From positions 158,627 through 222,626 of the forward strand of contig MU004230.1 of NCBI GenBank assembly GCA_010405405.1: DNA of 64,000 bases, given 5' to 3'. This DNA comes from Microthyrium microscopicum (Eukaryota). The translations under genes and the position numbers were made by a program. The notes under the pieces are model-generated. The model was not told where the DNA came from. It saw nothing but the letters and a program-made list of their open reading frames with translations, and ran no database searches. Positions 8,465-54,444 of the stretch are shown piece after piece (within the stretch, counting starts at the first letter, position 1; each line of letters begins with the position of its first letter).

Positions 8465-10667
8465 ATGCTCTCGCTTTTAGGCACCGTAGCTGCCTTGCCG
8501 CTCATTTTCGCCTCCCCCTTTGATTCAGCAGATGTTATTGCTAAAAGGGCTCAAGTCTGTGGTAGTGCTGGATACGACAAAAACACCAAGGCGTACTTTT
8601 ACGATGACAAAACCCTTGGTTCCATAAGTGCTTGCAGCGCTCACTGTCTTGCGGATACCAAGTGTCTTTCATATGCCGTAGGAAGTGGTGAATGTTTGCA
8701 CTATACTGTTGCCGTGTAAGTTGACGACTTTAAACTCAAAATCAGGTTCGACTTTTCTAGCAGAGCGATGTAGCGCTTTTGCTAAATTGCTAATGTATAC
8801 TCACTTCAAACTTATCGAAATTGAGAATCTTATTTACAAGACTAATATGAACACAGAACTGGCAATCTCGCAACCAATGCCGCATCTCCTTTTGCATTTT
8901 ACGACAGAGCTTGTGTGAGCAGTGTCTCTAGCTCAATTCGGCCTTCCAGTTCGTCAATTCATCCTTCTAGCTCTTCAACTCGTCCCTCCAGTTCTTCGAT
9001 TCGGCCATCATCTTCTTCTGTCCGACCTAGTTCAACAGCTGCCATCAGCTCGTCGTCGCTGACATCTTCACGAACATCCACGTTCTTAAGCTCGACCCGT
9101 TCTTCGACAACGTCAAGCTCAACAGCTTCCACATCAGCCTCATGCTCACTCCGCGGATATGATCTCAACAAGCCAGAGTCTTACATTGATTCTAGCAATG
9201 CTGCCTATCGGAGTGCTACCGGATGCGCCGCTTTCTGCAAAGCCCAGTCTACCTGCGTATCATTTGCTTGGAGCAGTTCAGTATGCTATTTATATGCCAA
9301 GCCTGTCGTGGGCAACTTCAAAGCTGATGCAAGCTCACCATACCGTAAGATTTCCCTATGTCAAAACACACAGCGCATTCGATGGTTCCCACAGAACGTG
9401 TCTCTGGTCGAGTGATGTGGCTACCACCAAATGCGATGGGTGGTTTATTAATTCACGCCGAAAAGACCCTATCGTCTTCTCAGACGAATCGCCTCTTCTC
9501 ATAATCTTATACTAACAATTTCAAGTGTTTTATGATCTGACTTGCCCTGGACTTTTCCCTACCTCGTCATCCTCTTCAACGAGCTTCACCTCTTCAACTA
9601 TCTCTACAGTGTCCTCACTAAGCAGCAGTGACCTGTCATCATCGACAATAAGCTCCTCGAGCTCGTCCGAGATGTCTAGCTCTTCTATTTCAAGCTCAGA
9701 CACATCGTCAACAGTATCTTCTGCCACATCTTCTGCCCCAAGTGCTTCCGCTAGTGCTTTGATGTGTCCAGTTCTAGATGGGTCATGCTATTCTGAGCCA
9801 AATGGCTTGAGAAATTACCAAGTGACTTGTAACAACTGTCTGCAATTTTCAACCTACGTTAGCTATTGCTCATTTGACTCTTGTCTTTCCCTTTGCGACG
9901 CTGACAATTCGTGCGTTGGCATATCATGGATTCAACAAGAGTCTGGCGCAGGCTATTGTTATACTCAAGACGGTACCACCCCGCTAAGTGGTCCGGATCT
10001 CCAATTAGACGGCTGTACTGGTGCTATCGTATCGTCTTGTACGCCAGCAGCAGTTTCCTCATCTTCCGCAAGTTTGTCGGTCACACCCACGACCTTTTTG
10101 GTGTCATCATCCTCAGCTAGCGATCCAGCATCCTCTTCTTCTACGGACATTGCTTCGACCTCTTCCACCACGGACATTTCATCGGCCTCCGCCACGGATA
10201 GCTCATCAGCCTCTTCCACTGTCAGTCCGTTGACCTCAACGACCTCGTCTATTGCAGTAGTTACGACAAGTTCGATACCAGTCTCCAGCTCGACCACTTC
10301 GAGCACGATGCCCGCGACAAGCTCATTCGCTCCAAGCCTTCCTAAATTTCAACTGGTGTATGGCCCAGCCAATGGATGTCTTTACATTCCCAATGGATAT
10401 CTCGGTGCTATCGAACCTGATGGTTCACTCACCAACGCTGAGCTTGCAGAGCAGTGCGCAGAGTTCTGCGACTCGACAGCTGGCTGTAATTCGTTCGGAA
10501 TCAATCAAATGCCGGCTTGTGGCTCAGCTGGACCGTCCGGCTACTGCGTCATTGCTTCAGACGTAGCGACATCTTCAGGCGCTGAAGAACAGTGTGGACT
10601 TGGCACGAGTTACAACGGTTGCTCGATTTACCAACAGGGCGAGAATTATAACCGTATCAGCAACTAG
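8465..10667 (+). CDS. secreted Ser/Thr-rich protein with four Cys-rich PAN/Apple-like modules
   Basis: Exons 8465-8715, 8857-9344 and 9526-10667 splice in frame. Signal peptide MLSLLGTVAALPLIFA, KR site, Cys modules (C..GYD...C...C....C.S+....C..Y) separated by Ser/Thr linkers, including five imperfect SSSSxRP repeats. Confidence 0.85.
9345..9525 (+). other. long (181-bp) intron; candidate introner-like element copy 1
   Basis: GTAAGA...ACTAAC...AAG; core 9376-9465 aligns with 54102-54192 of the hydrolase intron (62/91 identical by hand). Confidence 0.6.
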
Positions 10668-11259
10668 ACTAGTAGATATTCCCAAGCTCTCTGGAGCTAT
10701 TCCATTCCAATGTATACCTAATGTAATAGTAGTCATTTGAGACGGAAACTTGGTTGGATACCTTTTTGTCACTTGAAATAATATAATCATACTCACTTGG
10801 ACTGCACTCCATTGTAGATGACCAGGGTAAATATATCTGTCACACTTTCGGCATGACCGGAGCCACAACAGACCAGCTTCAAGTTATTTCTGAGTCAATT
10901 GGCCTTGGAGCACAGCTGCATCCTATGCTCGTTAACTTTCCAGTATTTGTGCTAAAAGAGAACCGTGTTGCGAGATACATTTTCCTGACACTAAGGCAAT
11001 TTGATGAAAAGGATCGAGTCTAATAACCTCATGCTAAGCTCTTTAAGCCGCTAATGAGAGATATCGTAGATCATATATGGAAGCCTGTCACCCAGTCCAC
11101 AGCAGCCTAAACATAAGCATACACAACTACACCTACCAGAAACCGGGAACGCAGAAAATATCTGGCGATCAGGTAAATAACACTGCATATCAAAGTTATA
11201 GCACGTGGCGATATATGGAATATCGTTTGCAGTAGGTCGTGATTCTCAAATTCTTGAAA

Positions 11260-11345
11260 GACGGCTTTTAAACGTCCCCTCCGTCGCCTTATTCAACCCC
11301 TGATCTCCGCTTATTCGTCCCCTCAAATATCCGAAGCCAAAGGAT
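11260..11345 (+). repeat. left TIR of MULE
   Basis: GACGGCTTTTAAACGTCCCCTCCGTCGCC...GAAGCCAAAGGAT is the reverse complement of 46684-46769; internal subrepeats CTTATTCxxCCCCT. Confidence 0.97.
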
Positions 11346-12184
11346 ATTAGGTTAGGGCTTAGCAGAGGCGTACAATTTAACTATATCTAGCTTAGCTTAA
11401 TAATAATTTTATTATTTTGCATTACTAGCGTTAAAAACTATATAATCTACTTCTTAAGTCCTTTAAGTTTCTAAGTCCTTAACTACTATTATTGTAATTC
11501 TTTTCTACTAATATATAAATTCCTATTACTATAACTATATAATATTAAATTTAAATCTACTACTAGATTCACTAGAAGCTTTCTATTCTTTTATTAAAGA
11601 AGGAATTCTTATAATTTAAAACTATAGTATTACTAATAGTTATACTATAATAACTAAGTAATCTAAACTTAACTTACTAAAGATTAACTAAAAATATATA
11701 TATTATCTTACCTACGACTATAGCTATAAAAATACCTTAATATCTATTAATACTTAAAATACTTTTATAAAACAACGTAGTTACCCTTAGAAGATAATTC
11801 TTTAAAAAAATTAAAATACTAGAATTTAGTATATAGAATTTAAAGATAAAGACTATAACTATAACCCTTTATAAAATCTTACTATATATATACCTCTTTA
11901 CTAATTATAATTAAAATAAAATAATATTACTAAATAAGTTATTAATATAGTATTAAATAGTATTATAACTTATTATATTATAAGTACTCTTAAAGTTAAA
12001 TAGCCTAGTAATCTTTATATAAGTTTTAATATAATAAATATACTTTAAAAAAAGTACTAATAACGTCTTATAAGTTATTTACTACTTTAGACTATATTAA
12101 ATTCTTTTAGAAAGAATAAAGAATAGAATATTAATATTATTACGAACTTAAAGTATAATCTTAAGATATTATTCTTTACTATAG

Positions 12185-15100
12185 TATAAGGAATCCTTAT
12201 AGGTTTAGTGTTTAGTATTAGATTTAGAGATCTAATCCTACAAATAAGATCTCTTTATCTCGTTTAGGGTTAGTATATCTAAGGATCCCCTAGGCCCTAT
12301 ATCTTTACATCTATAGCTCTATCTCTAAATCTCTTCTCTTTATACGTAGATCCTATAATATTAGCTATATTCTGCTTACCTAATTATGCTTAATAGCTCC
12401 TTATATAATCTACGTACCTCTATATTAAAAAATAACTCTATATGTTTATTACGTATTGCTAAATTGTTACTAGCTAAAGTCGTGCTTAAATCTACTAAAT
12501 AATAATAATATATTAGTAGTATTACCCTTAGTTAGGATTAGCGCTATTTAGATCCTTATAGAAGGTACTAGTAAAGCTATAAATACCTAATTAAACGAAC
12601 GCCTTTTTAGCGTTATTTACTAAAATAAAGAGCATAAAGTAGTTAAAGCGTTTTACCCTACTATATTCTTTTACTAACGATCTATAGAGGCGTTTCTACA
12701 TCCTCTCTACTTACTATCTACTTATATATACCCTATTCCTTATCTAAAAATATTTATTATTCTATTATCTTAGTTCTAATAATAATAGAAATAATATTAC
12801 TATAGATTCCTAGAATAAATAGCGCGTTAATTATAGTATGCTACCTTATTTTCTCTATCTTAAACGTAAGCGTTTATAATCTTATTTACTAGAACGCTCT
12901 CTACCTTCCTATAACTTATATAGACGCTTTTTAAAGGCTACGTTAGTTGCATTAGATATAGAAGCTAATTAGATATTAACCTTATAGTTAATCCTTTAAT
13001 ATAAACTACTTAATATCTAAAATTCTATTAAACTTTTTCTAATACTTAAAAAAAATAAAGGAATCTCTAATAATAAAAATACTAAATTTCTACATTAGAA
13101 CGCTATAGATATTTATAAAGTAGAAAAAGCTTTTAGAGTAGTACTTATTATAGCGTTAATAAAAGAGCTAGGATTAGAGAAGGAGGTATTAACTTTTAGT
13201 ACTATCTAGATTACTAGCCCTTTCGTAATAAAGGTAATTAAAGAAAAAGAACGTATAGTAAAAGTATTAGATAATAGTAAAGTACGTTTTTTAAAAAATA
13301 TATAACTCTAATTAGATTTACTACTTAGTTAACCTAACTCTTTAAATATTCCTTTAAGATTCCTTTTCTATTTGCTTATTATATCTATAGACCTAAACTA
13401 CTAGGTTACTCTATTAGTAGTAGATAAGCCTTTATTTATATAGGCCTTATACGAAATTAGACTAAAATAAAGAAAATAAGTATTAGTAATTTGCTAAGAC
13501 GAAGTAGACTTATTAAACTTAGTATAGAATTAATACTTTACTATTAAAGGAAGAGATTTTTTATATTATTATATTAAATCTAGCTACCTTAAAGATTTCT
13601 TTAAATAACTTTATACTATACTAGTAATATTATAGACTATAGCTCTTTACTATTAGTCTTTAAGATTAGTATAAAATATTATTATAAAAAACCTCTTAGA
13701 ATTAAACTTTAATATAGCTTATCTTAAGAAGTTATTTAAAACCTTATAAGATAAAGCTATAGATTAGTAACGTTTAATAAAGAATATTTAAGCCTATATT
13801 AACTAATTATAACGTAACTATACTATTAAATTAAATATAATACGCTAGTTAGAATAATAGGCTATTATAAAGCTAAAGACTAAATAAGCTACTAACTTTT
13901 AATACTAAGAATTAGTTAGCTTACTATATACTAAGGTTACTAAACTAGAAGGATAGCTATAAGTAGTATTAGTTATAGTATTATTCCCCTATATTAATTA
14001 TAAAGATTTAGAAAATAATACTATTCTAAGTCGTTATATATTAAACTCTATACGTCTTATAGTATTAAGTAATATCTAACTTATAGAAATATAATATCTA
14101 ACCCTATTATTAACTACTATAAGTATAGTAGGTAGTTACTCTTATTTTAAGAAACTTAGTAACTTTACTAGAATTAATATAACTAAGTATAAAATATAGA
14201 AGGAAAAAATACTTAACGTCTTATTTAACGATAAGGCGTATTTATACGTCCTAATAGAGAAGAAAAAGATTAAGTTTATTTACTAATGCCTTACTAGTAC
14301 TACCTATAACCTTACTATTATTTAAGAAGATAAAGAATTAAAGAACTTATATAAGTATATAAATAAGATATAGGCTAATCTAAATAGCTACTTCTATTCT
14401 AAAAATAGTTTTAAAGACGCTAAAGCTTAGTTAAAATTACCTAAGGCGAAAATAAAGGATTCTAAGACTCTTTAAGAGTTTTTAGGATAATTTAAAGCTA
14501 ACTCTATAGATATAGAACTTAATAAATATAAAAAGATTATTAAACTTAAAGACCTTATTTTAAAGAAGTTTATAAACCTATTAGTAGCTTATAATATTAA
14601 AGACTTTACTACTTTCTATACCTAACTCTATAACGTTAGTCATTATATTAACTATAAACTAAATATTAATATAAATTTAAATAATAGTAACTTATATTAG
14701 AATAACTTATATTAAGTAAATAATTAGTCTTCTAATTAAGGAAATAATACTAATACTAAAAATAATAATATTTCTTAACTCTTAGATATATTCTAAGTAC
14801 TAAAGGCTAAGAAACGTTATATTTATTATAATAAAAAAAGACATCGTATTAATACTAAGAACCTACCTTGTAAGAGTTAAGAGCTATTATTTAATTAGAA
14901 GATTAAAGCTAAAGTTATTTAACTAGCTATAGTATTTATATACGTATATTAAGGTTAATAGCCTTCTATTAAGGAAGCTTAAGATAAAAATAACTACTAT
15001 TTATTAAACTAGATACTCTTTTATTAAGCTATAAGGAGAAGCTAAATAAGAATAAAGCATAAAATAAATAAAAGAAACGTTAGGATAACTAACCTAATGC

Positions 15101-18100: not shown

Positions 18101-19840
18101 ATTAGAGTATACTTAGTTAGATATCTCTATTAACTTTATTATCTCCTTACTAAGATGTACTTACTAAGGAATTATCTATTACTATATTATAGTTATAGTT
18201 AATCGCTTTATATAGTCTTAGAGATTTATTACTCTTCTTAATCTATTAGTTAAAATAATAGTTATAGTATTTATTAACTACGTCTAGAAGCTTTATAGTT
18301 AGCTAGATTCTATCTTATTAGATAGAGGAACCTAGTTTATATTAGTATTTTAGGGCTACCTTTATAAACGTATTAGCATTACCTTAAGGCTAAGTATAGC
18401 TTAGTATCTTAAGACGAATAGAATTATAGAGATCTTAATTACTATACTTAAATAATACTTGCGCTTATTTATTAACTAAGACTAAGATAATTAGGCCTTA
18501 TTATTACTTTTTACTAAGTTTGTAGTTAACTTAGTAGTAAGCGTTACTATAGGCTTTATACTATTTAAGGCCTAGAATAGCTTTCTTCTAAAATTAGGAT
18601 TAGAATTAGCTTATTATTTACTACCTAAAGCTTTATATAAATCTATAGTAGCTTATAAGGAAGTTGCCTTAGTAAATTATATTTAAGATAGTAGAGAGAA
18701 GTTATACTAATTTCTAAAGAAATAACTAGTATAAGCTTAGTTATAGTAAAAGCTCTACGCTAATAAGTACTAGCGTCTAGTACCTAATCTTTATCTAGGA
18801 GATTAGGTTTATCTTAACGTTTATAACTATAATATAATATACCTTTTAAAAATACTTAATAATAAGAGCGTAGAATCGTTTAAAGTCCTTTATAAGATTA
18901 ATAGTATTACTTATAAGTTAGATCTACCTAAGTTAATAAAAATATATCTAGTATTTTATACTTAGCTATTGTACTTTATTAACGATAAGGCTAAGCTTCT
19001 TAAGGAAGTTAATCCTCTACTAGCTACTATTAGCAAAATTAAAGGTGAAGAAGAATAGCTTATAGGCGCTATTATTAATAGTAAATAGGAAGGCTATAGT
19101 AAAGGCAAAGTCCTTAAATATAGAATTAAATAGAATAGTTATTATAATAAGAGTTAGTAACTATAGTAGAATATACTTAACGTACCTAATACTATTTTAG
19201 AATTTTATTACCTATATCTTAATAAACTAAGTCTATATCTCTTATAAAAGCTACTAAAGCTTAACTAAGAAGAAGATTATAATATTAATAGTCTACCTAC
19301 AGATTAGGATTTTACTATATAAAAGCACTTTGTTTTTATAGTTTTATACTCCTTGTTTTAGGTTTAATTTAATAATACTACTATTAAAATTATTAAATAT
19401 TATAGACTAGCTTAAATAGATATCTTTACCTTTATTAATAAGTTTAGATAATTACTAGGGTTAGTAAATAACGTATTATAGTTTCTCTTAGTAGTAATAT
19501 ATATAAAGGAGTTTAGCATTTATATAGACTAGATTAGACTAGACTAGACTAGCCTAGCCTAGCCTAGAATAGAATAGATTAGAATAGCCTAAGAGGTTTA
19601 TTTTAGAAGAGGGGAGTTATATAAGGAATCCTTATAGGTTTAGTATTTAGTATTAGATCTAGAGATCTAATCCTATAGATAAGATCTCTTTATCCCGTTT
19701 AGGGTTAGTATATCTAAGGATCCCTTAGGCCCTATATCTTTGTATCTATAGCTCTATCTCTAGATCTCCTCTCTCTATACGTAGATCCTATAATATTAGC
19801 TACATTCTGCTCGCCTAATCGTGCCCAATAGCTCCTTATA
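12185..19840 (+). mobile_element. Ty3/gypsy chromovirus LTR retrotransposon A (RIP-degenerate), inserted in the MULE transposase
   Basis: 221-bp LTRs 12185-12405 and 19620-19840; TSD TATAG; PPT AGAAGAGGGGAG before the 3' LTR. RIP-reverted RT (RVCIDYR.LN.IT.KN, about 16290-16340), RNase H (NYDIYDKELLAI, about 17160), integrase (W.DISIDFI, about 18115) and chromodomain-like segment (about 19050-19230) in gypsy order. Confidence 0.93.
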
Positions 19841-22800
19841 TATAGTAAAGTAAATTAAGGTATTTTATATATATCCTAATATCTTACTCTTAAACTATAC
19901 TTACTATATAAATTACTATAATATACCTTTACTTTACTTTACTAGTAAGATACTAATAAATTTCTACTTCTTTATAGGATTTATCTTTATAATAAGAGAG
20001 GATAAGCATTAATATTATTAAATACTTTAGGTATTTAATTATCGTATTTAATTTAGTAGTTTAAAATTACTAAATACTATACTTACTAATAAATCTATAG
20101 CTCTAAAGAACGTAGTTAGTAAGAAATTTCCTAATATTTAATAAATTCTTTACTTATAGTATATTAATAAGGCTATAGAATATTAAATTATCTTAGTCTT
20201 TAATATAGTAAATATACGTTTAAGATTAGAAGCATTTAATTAGGTTTAAGCATAGTAAACGCTTATAATATTAATATAGAAGAATATAAGTAATTTTATA
20301 TACTTTTATCTATTTATTAATACTAATCCTTTTATAAGTTATTAATACTACTACTATCGCTAAGTATAATCTACTTTAGTCTAACTTTACTATAGAGTTT
20401 AGTAATAAGCCTAAATTCTTCTTTTATCTTTATAATACTTAGCTTAATTATAAAGAGAACTTCTATAAAGCTTATATTTAATAAGTTTAGTATTTTAGTA
20501 TTACTATATAATTACTATTAAAAACCTTTTATAACTTTATTAAACTCTAGCTTAGTTCTTTAAAGCTAGATCTTAATATTATAATTAAAGTTTATAAAAG
20601 CGCTACCTATACCTCTCTTAATTATATCTCTAAAAGAATAGGTTTAGATTTTATTTAAGTATAATTATAATACTTTTCTTCTCTAATTCCTATACTACTA
20701 CTACTATTTTATAAAGCAATCTTAAATTATACTATTATAAAGATTACTAAGTAGTTTTATAAATCTTAAAATAAAGGCTAGTAATTACTATATAGGCTTC
20801 TTTAAAGCTATTTATAGATTACTCTATTCTTATACTATTTAAGTATAATACGTATTTATACTTAAATAAACTCTAGATAGAACTAACGTTACTTTATATT
20901 AGTACTATAAACGACCTCTTAATTCTAGCTTTAATAAAGCTTAGCTAATTATTAGCTTCCTACCTTCTACTATAGCTTTAGCTAAACCTAAGATTTATTC
21001 TTCTATTTCTATACGAGCTAGTAAACGTCCTTAAGTTAATATAAATATTACTTTAATACATTAAAATCTATTATATTAGGAACTTCCTCGTTCTTTAGTA
21101 GCTTTATTAGCTTTAATAGCTTTAATATCTTTAATAGTACTTCTAAAGCGTAAACGTAAACGTTCTTATAAGATTATAACTTTAGTAGCGTTAAATAATA
21201 GTAATTTAGCTATAATAACTTTATTAGCGCTTATAATAATTAAGAAGGACAATAGTAAGGATTTTAAGGATATTAATACAATTCTTAAAGCTCTACTAAA
21301 TCCTATTTAGACTATTAATTTAGCTAAAGATACTATTAGGGACCTATAGGCGTAAGGGTATAAGCTAATAGTAGATATAATTTAAGAAAACTAATACGAA
21401 GAATCTAAGAGAGAGAGTAAGGAATAGTTATAGGTAAGCTATACTAAATAATCTTTAGGCGCTAAGCCCTTAGTATTACATAATAGGGGATGCTAATAAT
21501 ATTATAATAGGATTAATAATAGTAGATTTATAATAATACTTCTCCTTTTAAGATTAGCGCTCTTAAGCTAAAAACTTATAAAAGAATAAGATCTATAATT
21601 AAGTTATATAGTCTTATAATTTTAATACTTTTTAGGGTATAAAATATAAAATATAAAAGTAATAAAAGTAAAGATAATAACCTTTCTTTATATATAATTG
21701 CTATATATACTTATTTCTTATACTACTCTTTAGCTTACTAAAGTAACTATTAAGAGGTATTAATAAACCTTAAGATATCTTTAGAATACTTTAGTTTATA
21801 GACTAAGTATTAAGGTACGCATAGTAGTATCCTTTTACTATTCTAAGAGAATTTTATCTAAATTATATTTTTCTTTTTTCTTCTTTTAAGGGTCTATAAA
21901 TATAGGGTATAGTCTAGGTTTATTAGGGTTCTAGTTATAATATTTAGCAACTAGCTCTAAGTAAAAGTTAAGATTTAACTATAGTTACTAGTTAGAGTTA
22001 TAGTTCTAGTTATCTTATCTTATAAACTAAACTTTATATTATAAAACTTTCTTTTTACTAAAACCCTTTATAATGCTTATCTTATTATTAATAATATAGT
22101 TAACTACCTATTCTTATTTTATATTATTATCTATATTTATAATTAAGAAAAGGTTATTAGGTTCTTAGATCATTATAGTATATTTAGGAATAGAGTAGAG
22201 TAGCTAAGCGTAGAAAACTAAGTAAATCTTTATCTTCTCTAGTAATTCTAACTTATAAGTAAGAATATTAATCTTTTTAATAATTTTAAAAGGTCTAGTA
22301 GATTTATTATTAAGAGACTTTAATAGTTAGAGAGATTTATAATAGTAAGTATTAAGTTATACCTAATTACTTAGTTTAAGGTTTAGTGCTAGTTAATAAG
22401 TCTTATTAGCTTACTTTTCTATAAAGGTAGTAGACTATAAGATCTATTTATAGAAGTATTTATAAAGATTAGTATAAATATAGAAATACTAGTTAGTAAG
22501 TTATTACTTAGTTTAGATTAGCTTAGTTCCTAAGAAGGCTTTTAGAAGTATTAGTTCTAATCTTAATTAAGGAAGATAACTATTAAGTATATAGAAAGGA
22601 CTTATTTTAGTAGAAATATAGATAGCGTAGTTAGCTTTAAATTTAGTAAATAGTAGTAGTCTTACTTAGTTATTTTATTACTAGTTAATAAAGTACTTAA
22701 GGTAAGCTTTTAGTACTATAACTAATATTTCTATAATATTGTTACCTTATAGGTATTAAGCAGTAGTTAAGTAAATAATAATACTAATATGCTTATAGAA

Positions 22801-35765: not shown

Positions 35766-36035
35766 TAGTATATAGTTAATTTAGTTATTAGTTTAGTTGC
35801 TATTATTATTATTCTAATTGCTAGATAGCTTATTTCTATTATTAGTTTTATATTTAAGGTTTTAGTTAATAACTTATAACTTATTAATATATTTAGTAAT
35901 AGTAGTAGCCTTAGAAAGGAATAGGTACTATATAATTTCTTTAATAATTATATATTTAAAATAAGTAACCTTATTTACTTTTATAAGGCTAGTATTAGCA
36001 ATTTTGCTATTAAACTTAGTAATATATAGAGTAAG

Positions 36036-39000
36036 TATAACGAGTAGTAGGACTTAGAGTAAGTAGATAATTAGCTAGTATTTAAGAATCTACGTACGAG
36101 AGAGAGAGAAAAAAGATCTAGAACTACTATAAATCTATAAGGAAAGTAAGTCTACTTAGTAGAACTTTAGATACGCTAATACTCTCTAGGTCTAGCGCGT
36201 AATCTTATAATACTAAGATCTCTCTTAATATAGTACTATAAGGAATTATTACATAATCCCCCTCTTTAGAATAGCTCTCTAAGCTATCTTAGCTTATTAT
36301 TACTCTTCTAGTCTATTCTAGTCCATTCTAGTCTAGTCTAATCTAGTCTAGTCTAATTTAGTCTAGTCTAATAAATTCCTTCTATAATATAATACTAATA
36401 ATTAGACATTTAGAGCATCTTAACCTCTAGCCTACTAAAGTAACTATTAAGAAGCATTAATAAACCTTAAGATATCTCTAGAATACTCTAGTTCTTAAGT
36501 CCTAGTAGTCTAAGGGCTAGCATATCTATGCTAAATAGAGATATTAGTAATATAAAGAAAGCAAACTTTTTAGTACTAGTTAGTAAGGACACTATTAGAG
36601 TTATACGTAACGTTATTATCTTTAGTTAGCTCTAGCTATAGTAGAATCTAGAAAGAGTAAGAGCTTAGCTTATTAAGGTAATAAGCATAGAATTCTACAA
36701 TTAAATTTAGAGCGTTCTTAGCATTATACTAATTATACTATTCTACTACATTATAGCCTATAAATTTAATTATATACTATAACGTCTTCTTTTTAGTCTA
36801 GGGCTTATAATAGCTATTAATAATTATATCTACCTACTATTCTATAGTTTCTTTAGTCTTACCTATAATTATAAAAGGAAGATTTAAATATTTTAGAAGT
36901 TTAGTATTATTAGCAATATAGTAAAGAATCTAAGCGTAGAAGACATTATATATTTTTATTAAGAAGGATAGATCTAGCTTATATATAATAGTGTTAATCT
37001 TTTTAATAATATAAAAAGGTCTAAAGCTTTTACTATTAAGTATTTTTAAAGAATAAGAGGTAGAGTAATTACAAGTATCTAATCTTACCTAATTACCTAG
37101 CTATAAATCTAGTATAGCTTAGTAATAATAATTAATATACTTAGCTTATTATACCTAAGCCTAAGTAAGTTACTCTATAAGATATTTATATATATTAACG
37201 TAGCCTTATTATATAATATCTATATTAGCCTCTTCCTTATTAGTAGTAATAGAGGTATAAGATAAGTAAAGAATAAAGTAGTTAGCTTTAAGGCCTAATT
37301 AAGGGTTAAAGCTATTTTATACCTAGAAGGACGTAATTCCTATAGTTATATTTACTACTAAGTTAACTATAAATTCTACGAATAGTAGTAAAGCGACCTA
37401 GTTATCTTAATCCTAATTAATAAAGGCTTATAAATACTACTTTAGAGCTATAATAAAGATTTCTATAATACTATCTATTTCTAGGTAAAAAGCTATACTA
37501 AAGTAAAGAATAGTACTAACGCATTTATATAAACGTTTCTAAAAGGCTAAAGTAAATTAGCTACTATAATCTAAAAGAATACTTTTAGGCTAACCTACTA
37601 ATCTCTAGATATAGTTAATAAATACTAAAACTATAGATTCTATAAAAAGGTCTAGCAGTAGGATAAAGCGACGCATTCTTATATAACAATTTATAATAAC
37701 TATAACGTAGCAATAAATTACTCCTTAGTAGTAGCAGTATAGTAATAAAATAGCAAAGTTAATAAAGATATCTAACTAAGCGCGTTCTAGTAAGGAAAAG
37801 CTTCTTAAAAACCCTTACTTCTTTTATTATACTAGTTTAGTAAAGACATATTTATAACCCTTTATATATATCTTTACATCTTACAACATTCTAAGCTATT
37901 AATAGGTTTCTTATAAGTAATAATAAGTTATAACTACTCTCCTATAGCCTATAACTTTATAGCTATAAGTAAAGAATAGGACTTAGTAATATAATTTACT
38001 ATAAAGGATAAAGATATAATTACAATATAGAATTATATTATTTATAGTAACTATATAGTTACCTAGCTTAATGCTTTCTTACTTAAGTATATTAAAAAGT
38101 AGATACGTTTAGTAGTTTACTTTAGCCTATTAGATAGCTTCTATAGTTTTATTACTAGTAGACTCTTAAACTATATCCTATATAAACTAATTACTATTAA
38201 AATCTAGGAATTTATTATCTCCTAAGGGTTCTATTAACTCCTCCCTAAGTAATCTTTTATTACTAGCTAGCTTCTTCGTAGAATCTATTAACTCCTCTAT
38301 AGAGGTTAAGATATCTAACTTATTCTAAGCAAAAGTAGCTAAGTATATAATTAATAGTATTACTAATTTAACTAATAGTAAAGCTAACTTAATAGTATAG
38401 AGAGTATTAAATTAGTAAGGAAATAATAGCAATTAGACTTATTAAGAGACCTATAGGTTATTATTATCCTAAAGTAGATCTTATAATTAGTAGGTAAGTA
38501 CGTTAGCTTTACTATTAGATAAACTAAGGTAATATTAAACTTAGAAGTAGAATTAGGATAAAAATTTAGCCTATCTAGCCTATTAGTAAGATAGCTTTTT
38601 AGTTATTATAAAGGTTTACAAGTTCTAGTAGTCTAAAAACACCTTAACTATATCTACTATAGAGAATAGCTTTAGTTCCTATTCTTTAAAGGCGTAAATA
38701 ATTACTAATAACTCTTTATTATAAATATTATAGTTATATTTAGCAAAAGTTATCTTCTTTAATAGAAATATGATAAGCTATAATTTACCTTCTTTATCTT
38801 TCTAAGAGAGCACTATAACATATACTTAATTAGAAGCATCTATCTCTAACTATATTTCTTTTATATAATTAAAGTAGTAGAGGATAAGTATAATAGTAAA
38901 GTCCTTTTTTAGCTTTTTAAATACGTAGTCCTTAGGTCTATCTAAATCCTATAGAAAGATTACTATTATATCTTTTTTAGTAAGAGTAATAAAAGGAGCA

Positions 39001-42000: not shown

Positions 42001-43918
42001 TAGGACTAACTAATATAGAGCGTAGCAAGTTATTATTAGCATTCTTATTAAGATTAGCGTAAGGGTTATTTATTTTCTTAGGTACCTTAGATTTTTAAAA
42101 GACTTTAACTTATACTTAAAGCATTATAACTTTATTAACTTTCTACTAAAGTATAATTTAGAACTAATCTAGTTTAAAGGATTAAGACGTAACTATATCT
42201 TTTAGAAAAGCGTTATTATACTAGAAGTTATTTATAGTTTTACAAATAGTAACTCTCTTATTAAGAGAGACGTCGCTATCTTAAAGTCTAGTATTTAGCT
42301 ATAGGATCTCTACTTAACAGTCTTTATTTACTTTTATAAAGTTATCCATTAGATTCTAGTTTTATTTAGCATCTTCCTCTAGCTAAGCACTATAGACTTT
42401 CTCTTTATTTAATTACTTAGCTTAGATAATATTTATATCTCATTCTATATTATAAAGGTAGAATATAGCCTATATCTTTAAGTAGTAATTAAACAATATT
42501 ATAATAAATTCGTTAAGGTCTAGGCTACCTTTTAAAGTACAAGTAAGGCCTTAGCTAGATTAGATAACAAAGTAATTATAATATAGTAGTTCTAAGTCCT
42601 CTAAGGTCTTTTATACTATTAGTAGAGTAAGCTCTAACTTCTAGCCTTCTTAACTAAGCAATACTTAGCGCGCTATAACTTAGAATTATAATAACTTATA
42701 GTCTACTAAGAAATTAATAATATAATTTAAGTCTATAGTAACTATATAATAGCTTTTAAATATTAAAGGAACGTCTACTAATTCTAAATTCTTTTATATA
42801 ACTACTAACTATTTAATAATTTCTTATAGTAAGCTAGTATTATTTTTAAAGATTCTATAAATTTTAGTAATATTACCTTCCTCTTTACTTCTAAATTCCT
42901 TATCTCCTTTATAAGTAGTATCTTTAATATACTATTTTAAGAGTTCTACTCCCTTATTATTATAAATTAGGGCTTTTCCCTTACTCTCTTTTTATAATAA
43001 CCTAAGTAACTAGTTATTATTATCTTTATTAAAGTTTACTAATAATTTCTATAGTTCTTAATTACGTATAAGTAGCTTCTCTATAGATTATAAAATCTAT
43101 ATAGTATCTTAAGTATCTAACTAGCTAATATCTAGTATAGTAAAAGAGTAACCTAAGATTAATAAGTAATACAAAAAAAATAGAGATTAATAATAATTAA
43201 GCTAGTTAGCCTTACGCTAAAGTAAAAAAGATTAATATAAATAGCTATCTACTCTACGTCTACTCTATAGTAGTAAAGAAACTTAGTTACTTATAATAGT
43301 AATAAATTCTTACTAGCTATTAGAGTCTTTAATTAATAATTACTACGAAAGAAATTTAGAGTTAAGAATAATTTTAGTTCAAAGGTAGTATTTAGAGAGA
43401 TTATAGTAAGAAAGATAAATTTAGTATTCTTACATATAAGCAATTAAGAAGTAATCAAAGCTTAGACCTTTTATTAATCTAATACTAATTAAAATAATTA
43501 GTGTTAGAGAATCCTAACGCGCTAATTAGTTTTAGTATTATTAGATTTTAAAGTAAAGCTTAAAATTTTAAAGTCCTACGTATAAAGTATAATAGGATAT
43601 TACCTATATAGAGAGTAATAAGATATTACCTACGCTAAACGATTTAAAGCTTTTTTAATACGTAGTATAAGTGTATAACGATTTTATAGTATGTAGATTA
43701 TATAATAAGTAGTAGGACTCAGAGTAAGTAAATAATTAGCTAGTATTTAAGAATCTACGTACAAGAGAGAGAGAAAGAAGATCTAGAACTACTATAGATC
43801 TATAAGGGAAGTAAGTCTACTTAGTAGAACTTTAGACGCACTAATACTCTCTAAGTCTAGTGCGTAATCTTACAACACTAAGATCTCTCTTAATATAGCA
43901 CTATAAGGAATTATTATA
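36036..43918 (-). mobile_element. Ty3/gypsy LTR retrotransposon D (RIP-degenerate; relative of B), inserted in element C
   Basis: 218-bp LTRs 36036-36253 and 43701-43918; TSD GTAAG; PPT complement TAATCCCCCTCTTT after 36253; element-strand LTR begins TGTAATAATTCC as in element B; minus-strand pol remnants about 36700-40500. Confidence 0.93.
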
Positions 43919-46683
43919 GTAAGCTTCTTAGTCTTCTTTATTTAGTTTAAGGAATTTTATAACTAGGTAATAGCGTCTTTATAAGTATTATGCTTCTAAG
44001 TATATTAATTTAGGTTCTTCTAGAACTCTATTATATTAGAGTATAAGTTTAGTAATTTATATTACATATAGTCCTTAACAAACCTAAGAGTAATATTAAG
44101 AGTTTTACTATATACCTAAATAGTAGTATTTAGTTTTATAAGGAAAGAGGCTTACTTATTATAAAGATAGTCTTTAATATAAAGCTTCTATATAAGATAT
44201 TATTTAGGGTTATAACTAGAGTATTTATCTAGATTACTTTATTTACGTTTCTTACTTTTACTACTAGCTAAGGATTTAGATACTACTAGGGTTAGGCTAT
44301 TAGTTTAAATACAAGAGACTTATTAATAAAGGAAAGGCATTACTTACTTATTATTAGAGTTAAGTTAGTAGATATTCTTTTTAAACTTATATACGAACTA
44401 ACTAAGCTAGTCTTTAAGATCTTTATTTTAGAAGTAAAGGGCTATAATCTCGTTACGCTTCTTAATATAAGAGGTATATAGTTATTTAATATTATTAAGT
44501 ACTTTATTAAGTTCCTATTAATTTATATTATAAGCGTTTTCTAGGTAGAAGACGCGTTTATTATCCTTATAGTTAGCTTTAATTACGTAGTTAAGTTATT
44601 AGTAAAGTTAATTTGCTTTTATACGTACTTTATTAGTTATAACTATAGCGTTATTAAGTTTATTAGTTATATCTTTAATACCTTATTTATAGTATTAATA
44701 AGTATTTATTATATTATTTAGTTAGGTATAGGTCTCTTAAGTATAGAGATTAGCTACTTAAGCTAATTTAATATAATTATATAGCTATTTAAACTAAAGT
44801 TCTAATAATATAGTAATACTATAAAGGAATTTTTTATAAGTCTTAATAATTTCTAGATATAAGTTACCTTAAGTATAACGTATAAGTATAGAGTCTAGAA
44901 AGACGCTTTTAATAGTACTATCTAAAAGAATAGTTTTCTAAGCTTAGAAAGTAACTTCTTTATAAAGAAGTTATACTAAGGATACTTAATTCTTCTTATC
45001 TAGAGTAATTAATTAGTAAGTAATAAGGTAAAAAGGTATCTAGTAGTTTAATAGTAACTCTTTAATCTAGGCCTAGTCTACTAGTTAAAGAGTAGCAATT
45101 AGAAAATTAGTAGAGAATATCTTCTCTTTACTTTTATTTTAGAATTATAATTAGCTATAAATATAGCTACTCTTAGTAATTTTTAGAATATTAAATAGTA
45201 GAGGTACCTTAGCTATAGAGCTATAATAGGAGTATAAGGAATTATAGTATAAAGCTTAGCTATAAGGTAGTTCTATTATAGTATTATTATTATTACTATT
45301 AATCTAAGTATAAGGTAGTATAATTATAGACTAAGTAGTATTTTAAGTCCCTAATTACTATTACTCGTAAAGATAAGATATAGAATAAGTCCTATAGATC
45401 TTATTAGTATCTTCTATAGTAAGATAAGAGTTTAATATAAAGTAAATATAAATAGTAGATATAGGCACTAAGAAGTCTTAAGACGAAGTATAAATAGGTT
45501 ATAAAAGTATAATAAGTAATTTAGAAAAAAAAATAAAAGGTTTAATTTATTATAGTTTATTTTTAGGGCTTATTATAATATAGTAAAATAAGTAAAGTTT
45601 TACTATAAGTATAGTAGTAGAGAGAAGTAGTAGTAGTAAAGAAAAATTATTAACCTATAAGTCTAGTAGAGTAGAAGTTCTAAGTTAATTAGAGTCCTTT
45701 AAGCCTTTTAATTAGATACTAGAAGTCTAAGCTTCTAATAAGGTTAAGAATTAAGAGTTTATATATTTACTACGCTAGTAAGTTAAATTTACTAAGATCT
45801 AAAAATAGGATTCTATATTTATATAGGTAGATATATTAAATCTTTAGATTTTAATATGCTAAAAATTAGGATTATTTTTTAAATAGTATAAAGTATTAGT
45901 TTTATATTAGGGACCTATAAGCGTAAGGATATAAGCTAATAGTAGATATAATTTAAGAAAACTAATATAAAGAATCTAAAAGAGAGAGTAGAGAATAGTT
46001 ATAGGTAAGCTATACTAAATAATCCTTAGGCGCTAAGCCCTTAGTATTACGTAATAAGGAATACTAATAATATTACAATAGAATTAATAGTAGTAGATTC
46101 GTAATAGATACTAATTAGGCTAAAGATACTAATTAGGCTAAAGCTTTATAGCGTAAGAAGCGCGTTATTAAACCTTTAGCGCGCGTTTATAAGAATATTA
46201 TAGCTAATAAAGATCTTAAAATCGTAGAATTACACTACTAAATTATAGCTCTTTAGGCTACTTTAGCTTAACTAATACTATAATATAGAGGGCGCAGAGA
46301 ACGTAGATTTTATAAAGGATAAGGAGGACAAGCTTATAGTAAGTAATTATAATATTATTATACTAAAAATAGAGTTAGAATAGGATATAGGATACTTAAT
46401 TTATTACTATATTAAAAATAGGGTTAAGATATATTATAGAATAATTATTTTATACTTTAAAAATAGTAAAGAGATATTATATAGTTAAGATTCTATAGAT
46501 TTTATAGTTTTATGCCTAAAATTATAGTATTCTTAGGATTATAGCTTTAAAGCTACTAATATAGTTTTAGTACTTTAGTTTTATAAAATATTAGATCTTT
46601 AGATACTAAAATTATGCTTTAGTACCACTATAATACTATAAATTTATCACGAGCTTCCTATTTAGGAATAGCTCCAGACCAAC

Positions 46684-46769
46684 ATCCTTTGGCTTCGGAT
46701 ATTTGAGGGGACGAATAAGCGGAGATCAGGGGTCGAATAAGGCGACGGAGGGGACGTTTAAAAGCCGTC
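46684..46769 (-). repeat. right TIR of MULE
   Basis: Reverse complement of 11260-11345; followed by TSD TTCTTGAAA. Confidence 0.97.
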
Positions 46770-47200
46770 TTCTTGAAACAGGGTTTCGCCAAAACTTCAG
46801 TTATTAGCCCCTTCCAGGCTGTCACTGACGGATACTATTATTGAAATAACTGAAACAGGAGGCCTCTGCATAACAGCTCCATAAATAGCAGAGAACATAC
46901 CCTCAGTTCTTGGCATTTGGTTGGTACTACAGTCTTAGGGTATGAAAAGTGGCTGATACGATGATCGACCAAGTTGACAATTGCAAAATCAGGCACAATA
47001 GACAAGGAGATACGTCCAATTATTGCATTTGGGGTATAATAAATGCGAAGATGAAGTGAACACTCTGCAGAGTCTGTATATAAGGCGGAACGCCAGTCCA
47101 TGATATCACTCAATTCAGCAACCAACATTCCTTCAATCTCAACATCACTGCAAAACAACAATCTACACTCACTAAATCCAACTACCAAAACTCAATCAGA

Positions 47201-48107: not shown

Positions 48108-51100
48108 CTAATCTTTGACTTTGTTCTGGCGCTTCGCAGTCCCAATGTGAGTATTATGGACCTTTGTCGCAAACTTCAGACTCGTCACCGTCTCGCTTAG
48201 ATGAGCCTGGAGTGGACTGATCATGACGAACATGAGGGTCTTTGAGTTCCCGCCCAAAGAGTGTTGAAGCAGATAGGTCAACTGGAGGATTATGTTAGCA
48301 AGTGCTGCTTAAGCGAATGGTTGGATGACTTACTTTGCTGTTGCGGTAGGGAATGTGGCCGCTATCTCCTCGACCGAGAGCACCGATGACATCGCCAAGG
48401 CAGCTCAGGCTCTTATTGATGTTTTGAGTTTCTTTGAGTCGTTGACCCTCAGCTTGAGAGTGGGCGAGACGTTCGCTACCGGCCAGATCGACAAGATTGA
48501 GAGTACCTTCGCTGCGCTCTCCGGTTATTGAGTTCTCGCCGACAAGGGTGAGAATGAAGACCGAGTGACTTCGGGAGGAACGTTGGTTGGCTTTAGTTGC
48601 GGCGACACTTCGATTTCGATCGGCGCGGTTCAGGACACCTTCGACAGCTTCAGGCGAGTCCAGAGGCATGATTGTGACATCAGTGATGGTTGTTTTCATC
48701 TTTTGCATGTCGTGCCGAATCTCATGCTTTTTCTTATCGAACTCCTCGGCTCGGCCAAGAAGATCATTCAGATTCTCATTGTATACTTCGACAAACGAGC
48801 CCTCCATCTTGTAAGACCAACCTTTCTCTTCCAGCGCCTTGGCCCAGCCGTAGATTTGGCGGACCGCACGAGGGATCATACCATCTGACGAACTCATGGT
48901 ATACGTCTTTCCGGAACCTGTTTGGCCATAGCAGAATATACACACATTGTAGCCATCAAGTGCACTTTGAATGAGCTGGCTTATTTCGTCGAATATCTCG
49001 CCATTTGTGGACGAGGGACCAAACACTCGGTCGAAGGAAAAGGGATGTTGAGGGCGAGTAACGTTGCCCAGAGCGCTCTTTGTTTCAGCACCGAATATGA
49101 CCACCTCTTTGGCCTCATCATCGAGATCCGGATACTTTATTTTAGCATTTTCTTCTTCTTCGTCTTCAAGCGTTGGCCGTACTCGGCAGAACACGCGGAT
49201 ATTGCCTTTAAGTTCCTGAACTTGGTTGTGAAGCTTACGGCGCAATGTCTCCTCGGCACGAAGCTTTTCTATAGCCTCGTCCCGGGCGGCGACGGCCTCT
49301 TGGGTCTGGCGATGTAGAGTTGCAAAGGCAGAAGATTGCTGTTGATTGTTGGACTCGAGGAAGTCGATCTGCGCTTCTATCGCCTGATTCTTCGAAGTCA
49401 TGGTAAACAGCTCGGTAATCTTTTGTTGTAGTTGGAGCTCTAGTGCTGCTCGCATCGTTCGTTCCCGTTCCAAGTCCGCAATCTTCTGGGTCAGGTCGTC
49501 TCGTATCGAATCAGCCTCTCGCTCCTTGTTGCCGATGCTCGTGGCGATCTTTTCGATTTGAGCGTCGCGCTGGCGAGCTAGCTCCTCCACCTCCGTTGCC
49601 CGTCGAGCCTTTTCGTCCTGCAGCTCGTTCTGATGTTTCCGCACGAGATCGGATACCTCCAAGTTATGCTCACGTTGCAAAGCGGAGATTTGCTCGCGGG
49701 TTTCTCGTTGGGCGGATTGCAAATCATTTCCGGCAGCCGATGTCATTCGTTCCATGTCCCGCGAATGCTTCTCCGTCATGGATTCGATCTCGTAACGATG
49801 CTTCCGCTCCATGTCGTCAATTTCGATTTCCATAGTGCGTTGTATTTTCTCGGTCTCGAAAGCGAGTTGCTGACTCTCGAGCTTCAGCTGGTCGTATTCG
49901 CTTCGCAACGAGCTGTTGACCGACTCTTGCTTGTCCCGAGCAGCCTCCAAATCCAGGATCTTTGTTCTCATCGCATCGGTGAGCTCCTTCATACTGCTTC
50001 GCTCGAATGTCGTGCCCATCATTTGGGTTTTTAGTCCTTCGTACATACCTTCTATGACCGCGATGCGGTTTTCGACCTCACGTGGATTTTCCCAACCTGG
50101 CGCTGTCAAGTTAGAATCTTTATTAAGAAACTTGGCCTTTGTAGGAGAAGAGAAAGGAGACGCGCGAGAAGGAGATGCTGCGCGAGACTTTTGTGGACTC
50201 TTGCAGTTGTCTTCCGCCTTTGGAGGTGGTAACATGATGGCGGGCGGTTTAGTTGCAGGAGTCTTCTGAGGTATCTTACTACCCAGCACAGACTGCGACT
50301 GCTTCTTGACAGGCGTGGACGGCGATTTGTTTCGTCGGAGGGTCAGGTTATGCATAGCGAAAGAAATATCCTCGTCTTCGGGGATAGCTTCCAGCTGTGC
50401 ACGGTGGACTCTCTTTACAGTTGGAGATGCAAGAACGCTGGGTGATGAAACCGTTCTCGCAGATACATGTTTGGCAGTTGATGGTTGTCTATGAGGCAAA
50501 CTTAAACGTGTGCCTTTTAGACCCATTTTCTTGCTTTGAATCGATGACTGAGGAGTAGAAGAAATTGGTGGTTTACCATTGCTTGACCGGGAATCCTCTT
50601 CTTCCGGTTGTGATGGTTTTTGGGCGGGGGCGCGAAGTCCGACGTTTTGTGATTTGGCCCGCGCGTGGCCTTTGGGGTTTGGTTGTCTATATTGGGCGAG
50701 CATCGAGACGGGACGAGAGTTTGTAGATGCTGCCAAAGGACGCGCGTTAGGAAGTCGAGAGTTGTTAGACTGTGCTCCGTGGTTTTGTGCTCTCGAGCTC
50801 GGTCGCATGGTGTTGGAGGGCGGAGGCATTCTACTTGACATGCTCATGCCCATAGCAGAGGCAGGCCGTCGTTCCATGTGTGAGGCCGCCACCTTACGCT
50901 GCTTGCTTGGCGGCTCGGCAACTTCTTCGTTGTTAGAAAAGTCTTCGTAAAAGTCATCGGGGAGCATTGTACTATCGGAAGTCTTATGCTTCATCGCCGG
51001 AGGAAGGGGTAGTCCTGTAGCCCGAATATTGTTTTGCGACTCGGAGATTTCGTTGAGCTGGATTTTCGATTGTGCGGAGGGCATTTGAATACGGCTTGGA

Positions 51101-51204
51101 GGTCGGAGACCAGAGGGCGCTAGAGGCTATAGAATCGTTAACACGGCTCCACGTGAAATGTTGCTCCCATGTTTGCTACAGACCTTGTTCTCCGACTCCA
51201 TCAT
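48108..51204 (-). CDS. klpA: kinesin-14 C-terminal motor protein (KlpA/Kar3)
   Basis: Coiled coil followed by LKGNIRVFCRVRP, P-loop [44 protein letters not shown]. Introns 51127-51183 and 48282-48333 complete the ORF. Confidence 0.96.
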
Positions 51205-51698
51205 GAATACGGCTCTTGACAAGTAAAGAGCAAAAAGCTGTAAAGAAAAGAGAAGAGAAGCCAAACGCAATACTATGCTGAAGATAGAGCGTGAATAATG
51301 CGACGGGAAGGCGTGGGTATCGTGAAGTTGTATTGTCGTTGTTGGGATGGTAGGATTGGGAGTTGTTGTTGGTTCTTGAATTAGAGTAAACAAATCCCAA
51401 GGAGAGCAGGGAGTAAGGAAGCTTGCAGTGACTCTACGACAGGGATGCCCTTGCTAGCGTGCTTGAGCTTCGCGACAAAAGCACAGACTATTTTGGGAGA
51501 CGCCAAGACCTTCACATGCTGGCAAAAGCTGACCATCTTCACTTCCAGAAAATATCATCGTGATGCCACCTTGTTGTTGCCCAAAATAGCTTGCAGCTCC
51601 GATTTCTCAAACTAACTACACTTCTCATCAAGTATTCAGACATCTAGCTTCTATGGGATTGGATCTGTCGACTTCCTGCGCCATCGCCACCCACCAAC

Positions 51699-52888: not shown

Positions 52889-53314
52889 GAATCGCAAGAT
52901 AAAAACTCTTTGTCATGATACGAACCTGTAGACAGTACCGAACGACATCCCGGTGCGGTGTATTACATACAAAACGAATTAATGCATTTAACTGGAAACA
53001 TGAATAGCGTTCGAGATTCTACAATACATGATGCGCTTCTAGTCAGGGAAATTTTCCCCATGGCACTGTTGAAACAAAAGATTGTTTATTTCCCAACGTA
53101 CTCGATAGTGAGTCAAGCATTTTACGCATTCTATGGGAATGAAGTACATGATAGTAAAGGGCAGCATATGGTAGACATCATACTTGATGGGAGTGCCAGT
53201 TATTTTGTCCCCCAGTTGAACGCCCCTCTACTTGTCCAACCTCAAGGACAATTATCCAACCAGAAGAAATATTTACACCAAGCCAAACACCCATACCACC
53301 AGCATCACCATACA

Positions 53315-54444
53315 ATGGCCTCCCCGGATTCAAAAGACTACACTATCCAAACCACGCATGGCACCCTCGCCATCACTGACGTCGGCACCGGCTCTCCAGC
53401 TCTGTTGATGATTCACGGCAACTCATTTAACAAACGCATCTTCCACCATATTCTGACCTCACCTCTCTCCAAATCCCACCGACTCCTCGCCTTCGATCTC
53501 CCCGGCCATGGCGCCTCCACCAACGCTCCTGACGCAGAGCGCTCCTACTCCATGCCCGGCTACGCTGACGCCGCCATTGAAATCCTCACGAAACTCGAGA
53601 TAGGGCCCGTCATCGTCCTCGGCTGGAGTCTAGGTGGCCACATTGCCATAGAAATGATCCCCAAATATTCACCCCTCCTCGGTATCATGATAGTCGGCAG
53701 TCCGCCGGTCAACGCTGGTGAAGTCAACACTGCTTTCACGCTAGCCAGCGGTGATGACGAGGAAGGTTGGCGGTCCGCATATGCTGCGCGCGGAGATCTG
53801 ACTGAGGCGGAGATGCTGGAGTATGCACACGTATGTGCTGATCCGCCGTATGAAGACTGGATGGGGGAGAGCGTTGTGCGAACGGATCAAAGAGCGCGGA
53901 AATTGATGTTTGAGGCGTTTGCGACCAGCCCAGAGTTGAAGCAACGGACGATCGTGGAGGAGGAGAAGAAGGTAAGATTAACCGCATGCCCGCTCATATT
54001 GCTTGACGACATCCCACCAATTCCGAATTGTCATGCTTGGTCTTTGCAGCTCCAGTTTCAATCGGTGTCTGGTCAATTCCATAACATCGTATCTCCCAAT
54101 ACATTCGATGACTCGCATAGAAGGCGTTTCCTATACGAATGCGATAGATCCCATCAAATACGATAGGTCTTGTACGGTTTTACGCCGAAAAGGCGATATG
54201 GAGCGTGTTAGCTCTAAACGTAGTCTAGACTAACGAATTCCAGGTGGTTGTGGCGGTGGTGAATGGCAAGGACGAGCCGTGGATGGATCTGGGATGGATT
54301 AAGGGGGTCAAATATGGTAATCTGTGGCGGGGTGAGTGCGTGGAGATGGAGGGCTTGTTGCATGCACCGTTTTGGGCGGATCCGACGGGCTTTGCAAAGC
54401 TATTGGAGAGTTTTGTGGAAGATGTGTCGAGGGGCAGTGGGTGA
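53315..54444 (+). CDS. alpha/beta hydrolase, AidH-like (putative N-acyl-homoserine lactonase/esterase)
   Basis: Exons 53315-53971 and 54244-54444; LLMIHGNS, DLPGHG, RSYSMPGYADA, GWSLGGH, RTD.RAR.LMFE.F, AVVNGKDEP, GNLW, HAPF. Confidence 0.9.
53972..54243 (+). other. long (272-bp) intron; candidate introner-like element copy 2
   Basis: AAG|GTAAGA...ACTAAC...CAG|GT; removal restores the hydrolase in frame; homologous to intron 9345-9525; contains several inverted repeats. Confidence 0.6.

Follow-up and report, generated by a model that had tools for sequence, protein, structure and literature searches.

Among possible sources of new introns in fungi, introner-like elements (ILEs) are the leading candidates. 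The Dothideomycetes in which they were described include Zymoseptoria tritici, Fulvia fulva, and Dothistroma septosporum (van der Burgt et al. 2012, cited by PMC4457414 and PMC3609843), and the same two articles present them as introns about twice the regular length that have stable predicted structures and decay until they are indistinguishable from regular introns. This decay into introns of ordinary appearance is considered rapid, so that most of what ILEs did in the past can no longer be seen. PMC3609843 also reports low-copy introns (LCIs) in unrelated genes, which are maybe degenerated ILEs or products of rare transposition, and mentions Septoria musiva as a species with only highly degenerated ILEs; the ILE criterion of Collemare given there is a set of tens to hundreds of copies whose cluster grows more than 2-fold under a hidden Markov model (HMM) search. 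Here, we examine two long introns in a 64,000-nt stretch of the genome of Microthyrium microscopicum, a leaf-litter fungus of the Dothideomycetes (GenBank assembly GCA_010405405.1, contig MU004230.1, positions 158,627 to 222,626 of the forward strand), hereafter called the window. A preliminary description made from the letters of the window had singled out these introns, designated copy A and copy B below, as homologous members of an intron family that multiplies in this genome. Our analysis gives moderate confidence that both are diverged descendants of one ancestral intron-borne element and that together they represent an introner-like family that is old, decayed, and low in copy number, of the sort described as LCIs or degenerate ILEs. 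The family would thereby be caught late in its decay, in Microthyriales and in a genome that two large screens counted as introner free.

RESULTS

Copy A interrupts the gene of a secreted-looking protein (host A) and copy B that of a hydrolase (host B); the features discussed here are collected in Table 1. Both introns have the coordinates and sequence previously described, and both start with the donor GTAAGATT. At their 3′ ends, a CTAAC branch site (9512-9516 in copy A and 54230-54234 in copy B) is followed by 9 nt closing in AG (9524-9525 and 54242-54243), the two ends spanning 9512-9525 and 54230-54243. Once copy A is spliced out, host A reads ..ASSPY-L-FYDLTC, which aligns without indel to ..AASPFAFYDRAC in the first module of the same protein. 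Likewise, splicing of copy B gives ..EEEKK/VVVAVVNGKDEPW..HAPFW, in agreement with the C termini of all relatives inspected. The database open reading frame (ORF) P0001 (283 residues; 53315-54163) reads through copy B and ends in 64 intron-encoded, unrelated residues that replace a conserved 66-residue C terminus. Protein homology at both junctions thus supports the view that copies A and B are real spliceosomal introns. A single 4450-nt contig of the presumed RNA run X5 spans 52900-55532 unspliced with 0 differences and is uninformative on splicing.

The two hosts, a hydrolase and a Ser/Thr-rich PAN-like protein, are unrelated. Host B matches Pfam Abhydrolase_6 (E = 2.6e-17), and the best solved relative of P0002, a hydrolase 59% identical to that of the window, is 4g5x (E = 3e-73). 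The bank names this entry "alpha/beta hydrolase fold protein," and we take it to be AidH, which makes the label AidH-like a reasonable one. For host A, the label PAN-like has matches to PAN_2, PAN_3, and PAN_4 behind it (E = 6e-4 to 8e-3), every one of them under the curated Pfam cut-offs.

Copies A and B had been described as 3 to 5 times longer than the common introns of the window. This agrees with the 47 to 61 nt of the seven introns that have canonical signals and open frames on each side. Four other candidate introns measure 83 to 155 nt (141, 131, 155, and 83 nt), so that long introns are not confined to copies A and B. Between 51 and 425 of 500 shuffles scored at least as high as these four did against the two copies, which gives no sign of family membership. 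One long neighbor is intron 1 of host A (8716-8856; 141 nt), in which AATCTTAT, the 8-mer pairing with the donor in intron 2, stands ahead of the branch site; beyond AATCTTAT, no significant likeness of intron 1 to copies A and B was found.

Copies A and B share a collinear core in their interiors. With blastn scoring of +1/−1, which is suited to about 67% identity, the cores align at 67.3% over 98 nt (E = 2.7e-8, the whole window being searched on both strands). Scoring of +2/−3 reproduced the identity of 62/91 counted earlier by hand (68.1% over 91 nt), with E = 0.009 against the whole window. The local alignment score was 36, a value that none of 2000 dinucleotide shuffles reached (mean, 17.0; standard deviation, 2.3; maximum, 29), and the outcome was unchanged after the splice-site ends were trimmed. 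The claim of homologous introns in unrelated genes was thus borne out, as was its significance against shuffled introns. Over 106 columns, the alignment holds 69 matches, 20 transitions, 17 transversions, and 1 gap. An nhmmer profile built from both cores finds that of copy A at E = 1.5e-30, as expected by construction. The same profile, run over the whole window with nhmmer --max, gave the reverse strand of copy A as its sole extra match (E = 0.01). Likewise, blastn revealed no third copy within the window; its next matches in rank had an E of at least 0.1 and lay in the branch-site region. A metagenome scan with a two-block core pattern returned 0 matches, and copies A and B have no 5-residue word in common in any shared reading frame.

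The likeness also appears at the intron ends. The donor 8-mer GTAAGATT occurs in 2 of 13 surveyed introns, namely, copies A and B, and in none of the 11 others. The last 34 nt of the two copies score 11 against each other, compared with 8 or less in 22 comparisons with the 11 other introns. Further evidence comes from a third copy elsewhere in the genome. Contigs of DNA runs from the same organism were compared with positions 52900-55600 at a likeness of at least 80%. In the near-complete run X1, whose contigs reach 107 kb, the whole 2.7-kb stretch lies in one 29-kb contig; the records listed (8 of 9) comprise this source, six contigs with an unrelated upstream repeat, and one third copy, which is identical to copy B at 38/45 positions (84%; 7 differences). 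About 1e-4 such 45-nt matches would be expected by chance in a genome of ~37 Mb, by our calculation and with the genome size taken from a published supplement row. In run X4, from the same sample, the loose end immediately before this match reads AAG/GTGAGATT plus 6 nt. The first core block consequently begins at intron position 31 in the third copy, compared with position 32 in copy A. Since the donor stands at equal spacing from the core, the splice donor belongs to the repeated unit, as it does in ILEs.

We then considered whether the intron positions are shared with relatives. Two soil-metagenome loci, L001 and L002, encode proteins 58% and 56% identical to P0002, respectively. Each has one canonical intron of about 66 nt after ..SW (GTAAGT..CTGAC..TAG and GTACGT..CTAAT..CAG), which marks both loci as clearly fungal, and at the DNA level neither is interrupted at the copy B site. 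The window hydrolase is without an intron at the ..SW position, and intron positions in this hydrolase family therefore vary between lineages both ways. The copy B site was uninterrupted in 9 of the 10 loci examined, the remaining one, L009, shifting frame nearby. At the protein level, P0002 and the five proteins nearest to the window hydrolase in a quick tree (P0005, P0006, P0010, P0012, and P0018) were all contiguous at the site (6/6). Thus, no relative with a readable structure has the copy B intron; these relatives are only 51 to 61% identical. For copy A, module 1 of the same protein has no intron at the site equivalent to intron 2. Both intron positions look lineage specific. The argument for a gain in host B from an apparent bacterial origin of the hydrolase fared less well: such an origin was not shown, and the argument is weak because the hydrolase sits inside a fungal group of 47 rows. 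In a quick-search tree of 113 of the 120 listed matches (7 rows under 200 residues were dropped), the window and all 10 named fungi fall in this 47-row side and all 9 named bacteria in a 66-row side (SH-aLRT, 100); the tree being unrooted, the direction of any transfer is unreadable.

Both introns had been credited with hairpin potential, a claim that stands for copy A and falls for copy B. Copy A contains an imperfect inverted repeat with 31-nt arms, 77% complementary, around a 22-nt spacer. Its folding energy has a z score of −2.5, and 2 of 200 shuffles folded as well. No inverted repeat was found in copy B. As both arms align between the copies, the hairpin would be ancestral and decayed in copy B.

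The alternative that survives best is a small palindromic transposon of about 85 to 110 nt, akin to a miniature inverted-repeat transposable element (MITE), that inserted later into two pre-existing, nonhomologous introns. We regard this as unlikely, though worth weighing seriously, and several observations count against descent from an intron-borne element. The likeness detectable by BLAST is interior only, starting 32 and 131 nt from the 5′ ends of copies A and B, respectively, and stopping 53 and 44 nt short of their 3′ ends, and copy B has 122 nt without counterpart in copy A between donor and core. Such an interior-only likeness is read by the pipeline of Gozashti et al., as far as its published account goes, as a repeat inserted into an older intron, and exactly this pattern is filtered out by published pipelines. 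The common donor 8-mer and the modest likeness of the acceptor ends could owe something to the splice consensus. That the third copy lies within a gene is suggested by 30 letters. All three copies are in sense orientation relative to their own donors, an argument that is weak (chance, about 1 in 4) because only three copies are known. The absence of an intron at the copy A site was read from a paralogous module of the same protein. Copy B folds like its own shuffles (z score, +0.11), and none of the 11 consensus pairs shows a compensatory change, with two sequences to compare. An insertion of the MITE-like kind would account for the confinement of strong likeness to the interiors, for the inverted repeat at the core of copy A, and for the added block of copy B, and the genome does bear transposon debris (an AT-rich island at 11 to 47 kb and a short dispersed repeat at 53138-53218).

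Against such an insertion, the donor 8-mer is the same in copies A and B, and the third copy has GTGAGATT at the same spacing from the core within 1 nt. Moreover, the likeness extends about 26 nt past the 3′ arm of the palindrome. By eye, no target-site duplication is visible around the palindrome, and neither the 36-kb noncoding island nor any other intergenic part of the window holds a copy. Run X1 has one further match at a likeness of at least 80% among those listed (8 of 9), and both intron positions look lineage specific. A third copy with a donor at this spacing is the pattern of ILEs rather than that of a repeat landing at random. A tandem arrangement within copy B, with its 5′ block as one of two units, was rejected as unproven: 65 of 1000 shuffles scored at least the 12 that 54011-54044 scored against the 3′ half of the core, and 797 of 1000 scored at least the 9 that the block scored against copy A.

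The proposal that this genome has its own multiplying intron family did not hold up. Copies A and B differ at 37 of 106 aligned sites, which corresponds to a calculated ~0.47 substitutions per site after correction, a divergence roughly five times that of the repeat pairs in the island (~91% identity). The single match of at least 80% among those listed in run X1 (8 of 9) leaves the hydrolase intron without young relatives. An active, high-copy introner family that multiplies now is very improbable: the identities are 67% and 84%, no copy is near identical, the hairpin of copy B is lost, and two published screens score the species 0. In supplementary table 4 of Gozashti et al. 2022, the column "ie" for M. 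microscopicum gives 0 introners, and supplement file 6 of a 2025 follow-up screen has a row "0 0" for the species, the part of the file consulted being without column heads. According to the account of the 2022 screen consulted, it called families of at least 4 introns at a BLAST e-value of at most 1e-5, with likeness that extends to about 10 intronic nt or less from either boundary. Copies A and B match at intron positions 32-128 and 131-228 only, at E = 0.009 (+2/−3 scoring, window alone). Copies of this sort would be missed by that pipeline, and the screens therefore exclude an active family, not a decayed one. In the literature searched, no paper mentions both introner-like elements and Microthyrium.

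What speaks for a greater number of copies is the presence of two within 45 kb. With three copies in ~37 Mb, about 0.007 close pairs would be expected, and about 1 with some 30 copies (calculated). This spacing hints either at many decayed copies or at local insertion. Copies A and B may even be the part now showing of a large burst of introners, since extinct, among the ancestors of Microthyrium, made up of tens to hundreds of introns derived from one hairpin-bearing ancestor and now 65 to 70% alike; we hold this to be a tentative idea, with the odds against it. Such a burst would be scored as introner free because the screens need strong end-to-end BLAST likeness. On present evidence, the family is an old one with few copies.

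In other runs, record 22 of run X6 covers 53965-54200 with 0 differences, and runs X5 and X6, which bear other organism labels, are identical to the window over the intron. Their identity over 52900-55532 suggests the same organism under other labels, or mixed samples.

The preliminary description had offered a dispersed family of intronic noncoding RNA as its alternative. The location in introns and the core length of about 95 nt do fit intronic small nucleolar RNAs (snoRNAs) of fungi, and thereby an intron-encoded, snoRNA-like family conserved for function. We nevertheless judge this very unlikely. The consensus fold of the two copies is weak (−6.25 kcal/mol), and its lack of compensatory pairs leaves no shared RNA structure to point to. 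Differences at paired positions are one sided: where copy A forms its hairpin, changes in one partner disrupt the pairing in copy B. No Rfam family reached its gathering score anywhere in the window. At E values up to 10, Rfam gave nothing in the intron region of host A and one noise match in that of the hydrolase (E = 9.3, an animal long noncoding RNA). No conserved C/D or H/ACA boxes were seen by eye at aligned positions, and the longest identical runs, of 9 to 11 nt, are calculated to be about what chance gives at 67% identity. Taken together, the one-sided changes, the weak consensus, and the lack of an Rfam match make a conserved structured RNA in copies A and B unlikely. Lastly, a chance resemblance of two long introns, for which one might cite that the pair was chosen after 64 kb had been read and that window-wide E values with +2/−3 scoring are 0.009 to 0.014, can be set aside almost entirely, given the E of 2.7e-8 with scoring suited to 67% identity, the absence of any shuffle reaching the score, and the independent third copy.

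Both host genes adjoin an AT-rich, ORF-free island (10700-46800; GC content of 20 to 27%, compared with 44 to 51% in the flanks). A self-BLAST of the window (+2/−3 scoring, with masking) showed multi-kb repeats at 65 to 72% identity within the island. With its three pairs of direct repeats (Table 1), the island looks like three long terminal repeat (LTR) retrotransposons degraded by repeat-induced point mutation. At its edges lies a 91-nt inverted repeat with 97.8% identity (11258-11348 and 46681-46771), far better preserved than any sequence of the island interior. The dispersed repeat at 53138-53218 (core, 53155-53196) lies about 120 to 160 nt upstream of the hydrolase start codon. It is matched at about 85 to 97% by the six other contigs of run X1 (records 2-7) and also by contigs of runs X5 and X6; within the window, no significant second copy of it was found.

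Table 1. Coordinates of the two introns, their host genes, and other features (window positions unless a locus is named)
Feature	Position	Strand	Remarks
Core of copy A	9376-9472	+	Homologous to 54102-54199
Core of copy B	54102-54199	+	Homologous to 9376-9472
Copy A (host A intron 2)	9345-9525	+	181 nt, phase 1
Copy B (sole intron of host B)	53972-54243	+	272 nt, phase 0
Extra 5′ block of copy B	53980-54101	+	MAFFT gap; 122 nt without counterpart in copy A
Stretch of copy B matched by third genomic copy	54086-54130	+	Run X1 record 8, 38,272-nt contig, + strand, around its position 17.9 kb
Imperfect inverted repeat (hairpin) in copy A	9363-9446	+	Arms 9363-9393 and 9416-9446
Host gene A, secreted-looking Ser/Thr-rich protein with weak PAN-like modules	8465-10667	+	From ORFs and junctions
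Host gene A exons	About 8465-8715, 8857-9344, 9526-10667	+	From ORFs and junctions
Host gene B, AidH-type alpha/beta-hydrolase	53315-54447	+	Exons 53315-53971 and 54244-54447
SW-site introns in metagenome homologues	L001 1813-1881; L002 about 620-684		Canonical, short
Genic parts of window	1-10.7 kb, 46.8-64 kb		On either side of the AT-rich island
Kinesin ORF	48298-51126	−	99% identical to an M. microscopicum protein
Island direct repeats	12185-12407 / 19620-19842		~91% identity, 220-230 bp, 7.4-7.6 kb apart
Island direct repeats	24764-24993 / 32192-32421		~91% identity, 220-230 bp, 7.4-7.6 kb apart
Island direct repeats	36020-36251 / 43687-43916		~91% identity, 220-230 bp, 7.4-7.6 kb apart

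DISCUSSION

The history that best fits copies A and B may be sketched as follows. The ancestral unit would have been about 180 nt long, with its own donor GTRAGATT, a hairpin of about 85 nt with 31-nt arms beginning about 22 nt past the donor, a tail of about 25 nt after the hairpin, and probably its own branch site and acceptor. Copies would have inserted in sense orientation into unrelated genes, where the spliceosome would remove them as ordinary introns. They may have spread by reverse splicing or retrohoming, the routes put forward for ILEs of fungi, and spreading has presumably since stopped. As the copies later drifted, the hairpin would have disappeared from copy B, and about 120 nt would have been added after its donor.

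If this history is right, the case illustrates that the donor travels with the element, that the hairpin is lost in some copies, and that length can grow or shrink. Taken alone, it is a small and expected addition to a known kind of family. Should profile searches recover many more decayed copies, the published prevalence of introners would be an underestimate, and the case would gain in value. Were the extinct burst real, "fossil" introner families would come to light through such searches in genomes now taken as negative, and much of the intron gain in fungi would be attributed to these families.

Among the systems compared, transposon-type introners of algae and other aquatic eukaryotes (PMC9860276) resemble the present family in that the element brings splice signals and creates an intron. 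As that article describes them, many of their families have target-site duplications and/or terminal inverted repeats at the borders, and they number 5 to more than 2000 copies; none of those border features or copy numbers is seen here. The same article calls ascomycetes the outlier.

The symmetrical sister (stw)introns of Hypoxylaceae, as presented in PMC8469720, were also compared. They too are similar introns that proliferated at new positions, with internal inverted repeats able to form a long hairpin and without flanking duplications. They differ in their terminal inverted repeats of 45 to 55 nt, the intron often nested in their donor, and their recent and numerous copies. The copies in M. 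microscopicum are old and showed no nested intron, and their repeat, with arms of 31 nt, lies in the interior.

ILEs share several features with copies A and B: they are canonical spliceosomal introns, homologous to one another, in unrelated genes of the same fungal class. They are longer than regular introns, with a hairpin-forming interior (seen here in copy A), and they stand at positions not common to relatives (as appears to hold here), without target-site duplications or terminal repeats at the intron borders. The difference lies in their tens to hundreds of near-identical copies, set against the three copies known here at 67 to 84% identity, in the two genome-wide screens that found none in M. 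microscopicum, and in the one copy without a stable fold. The comparison is one of published descriptions. Measured by the features of ILEs, copies A and B are long introns in unrelated genes, with an apparently lineage-specific position in the hydrolase; they are not near identical, and structure divides them.

LCIs, finally, are likewise few similar introns in unrelated genes, and as PMC3609843 describes them, a species may hold only decayed copies that standard searches miss. They were defined there from near-identical BLAST clusters and have normal length and folding energy, whereas the copies found here are long and far from identical. Copies A and B function as ILEs do and are best filed with LCIs and degenerate ILEs, as a family of a known kind that is not actively multiplying.

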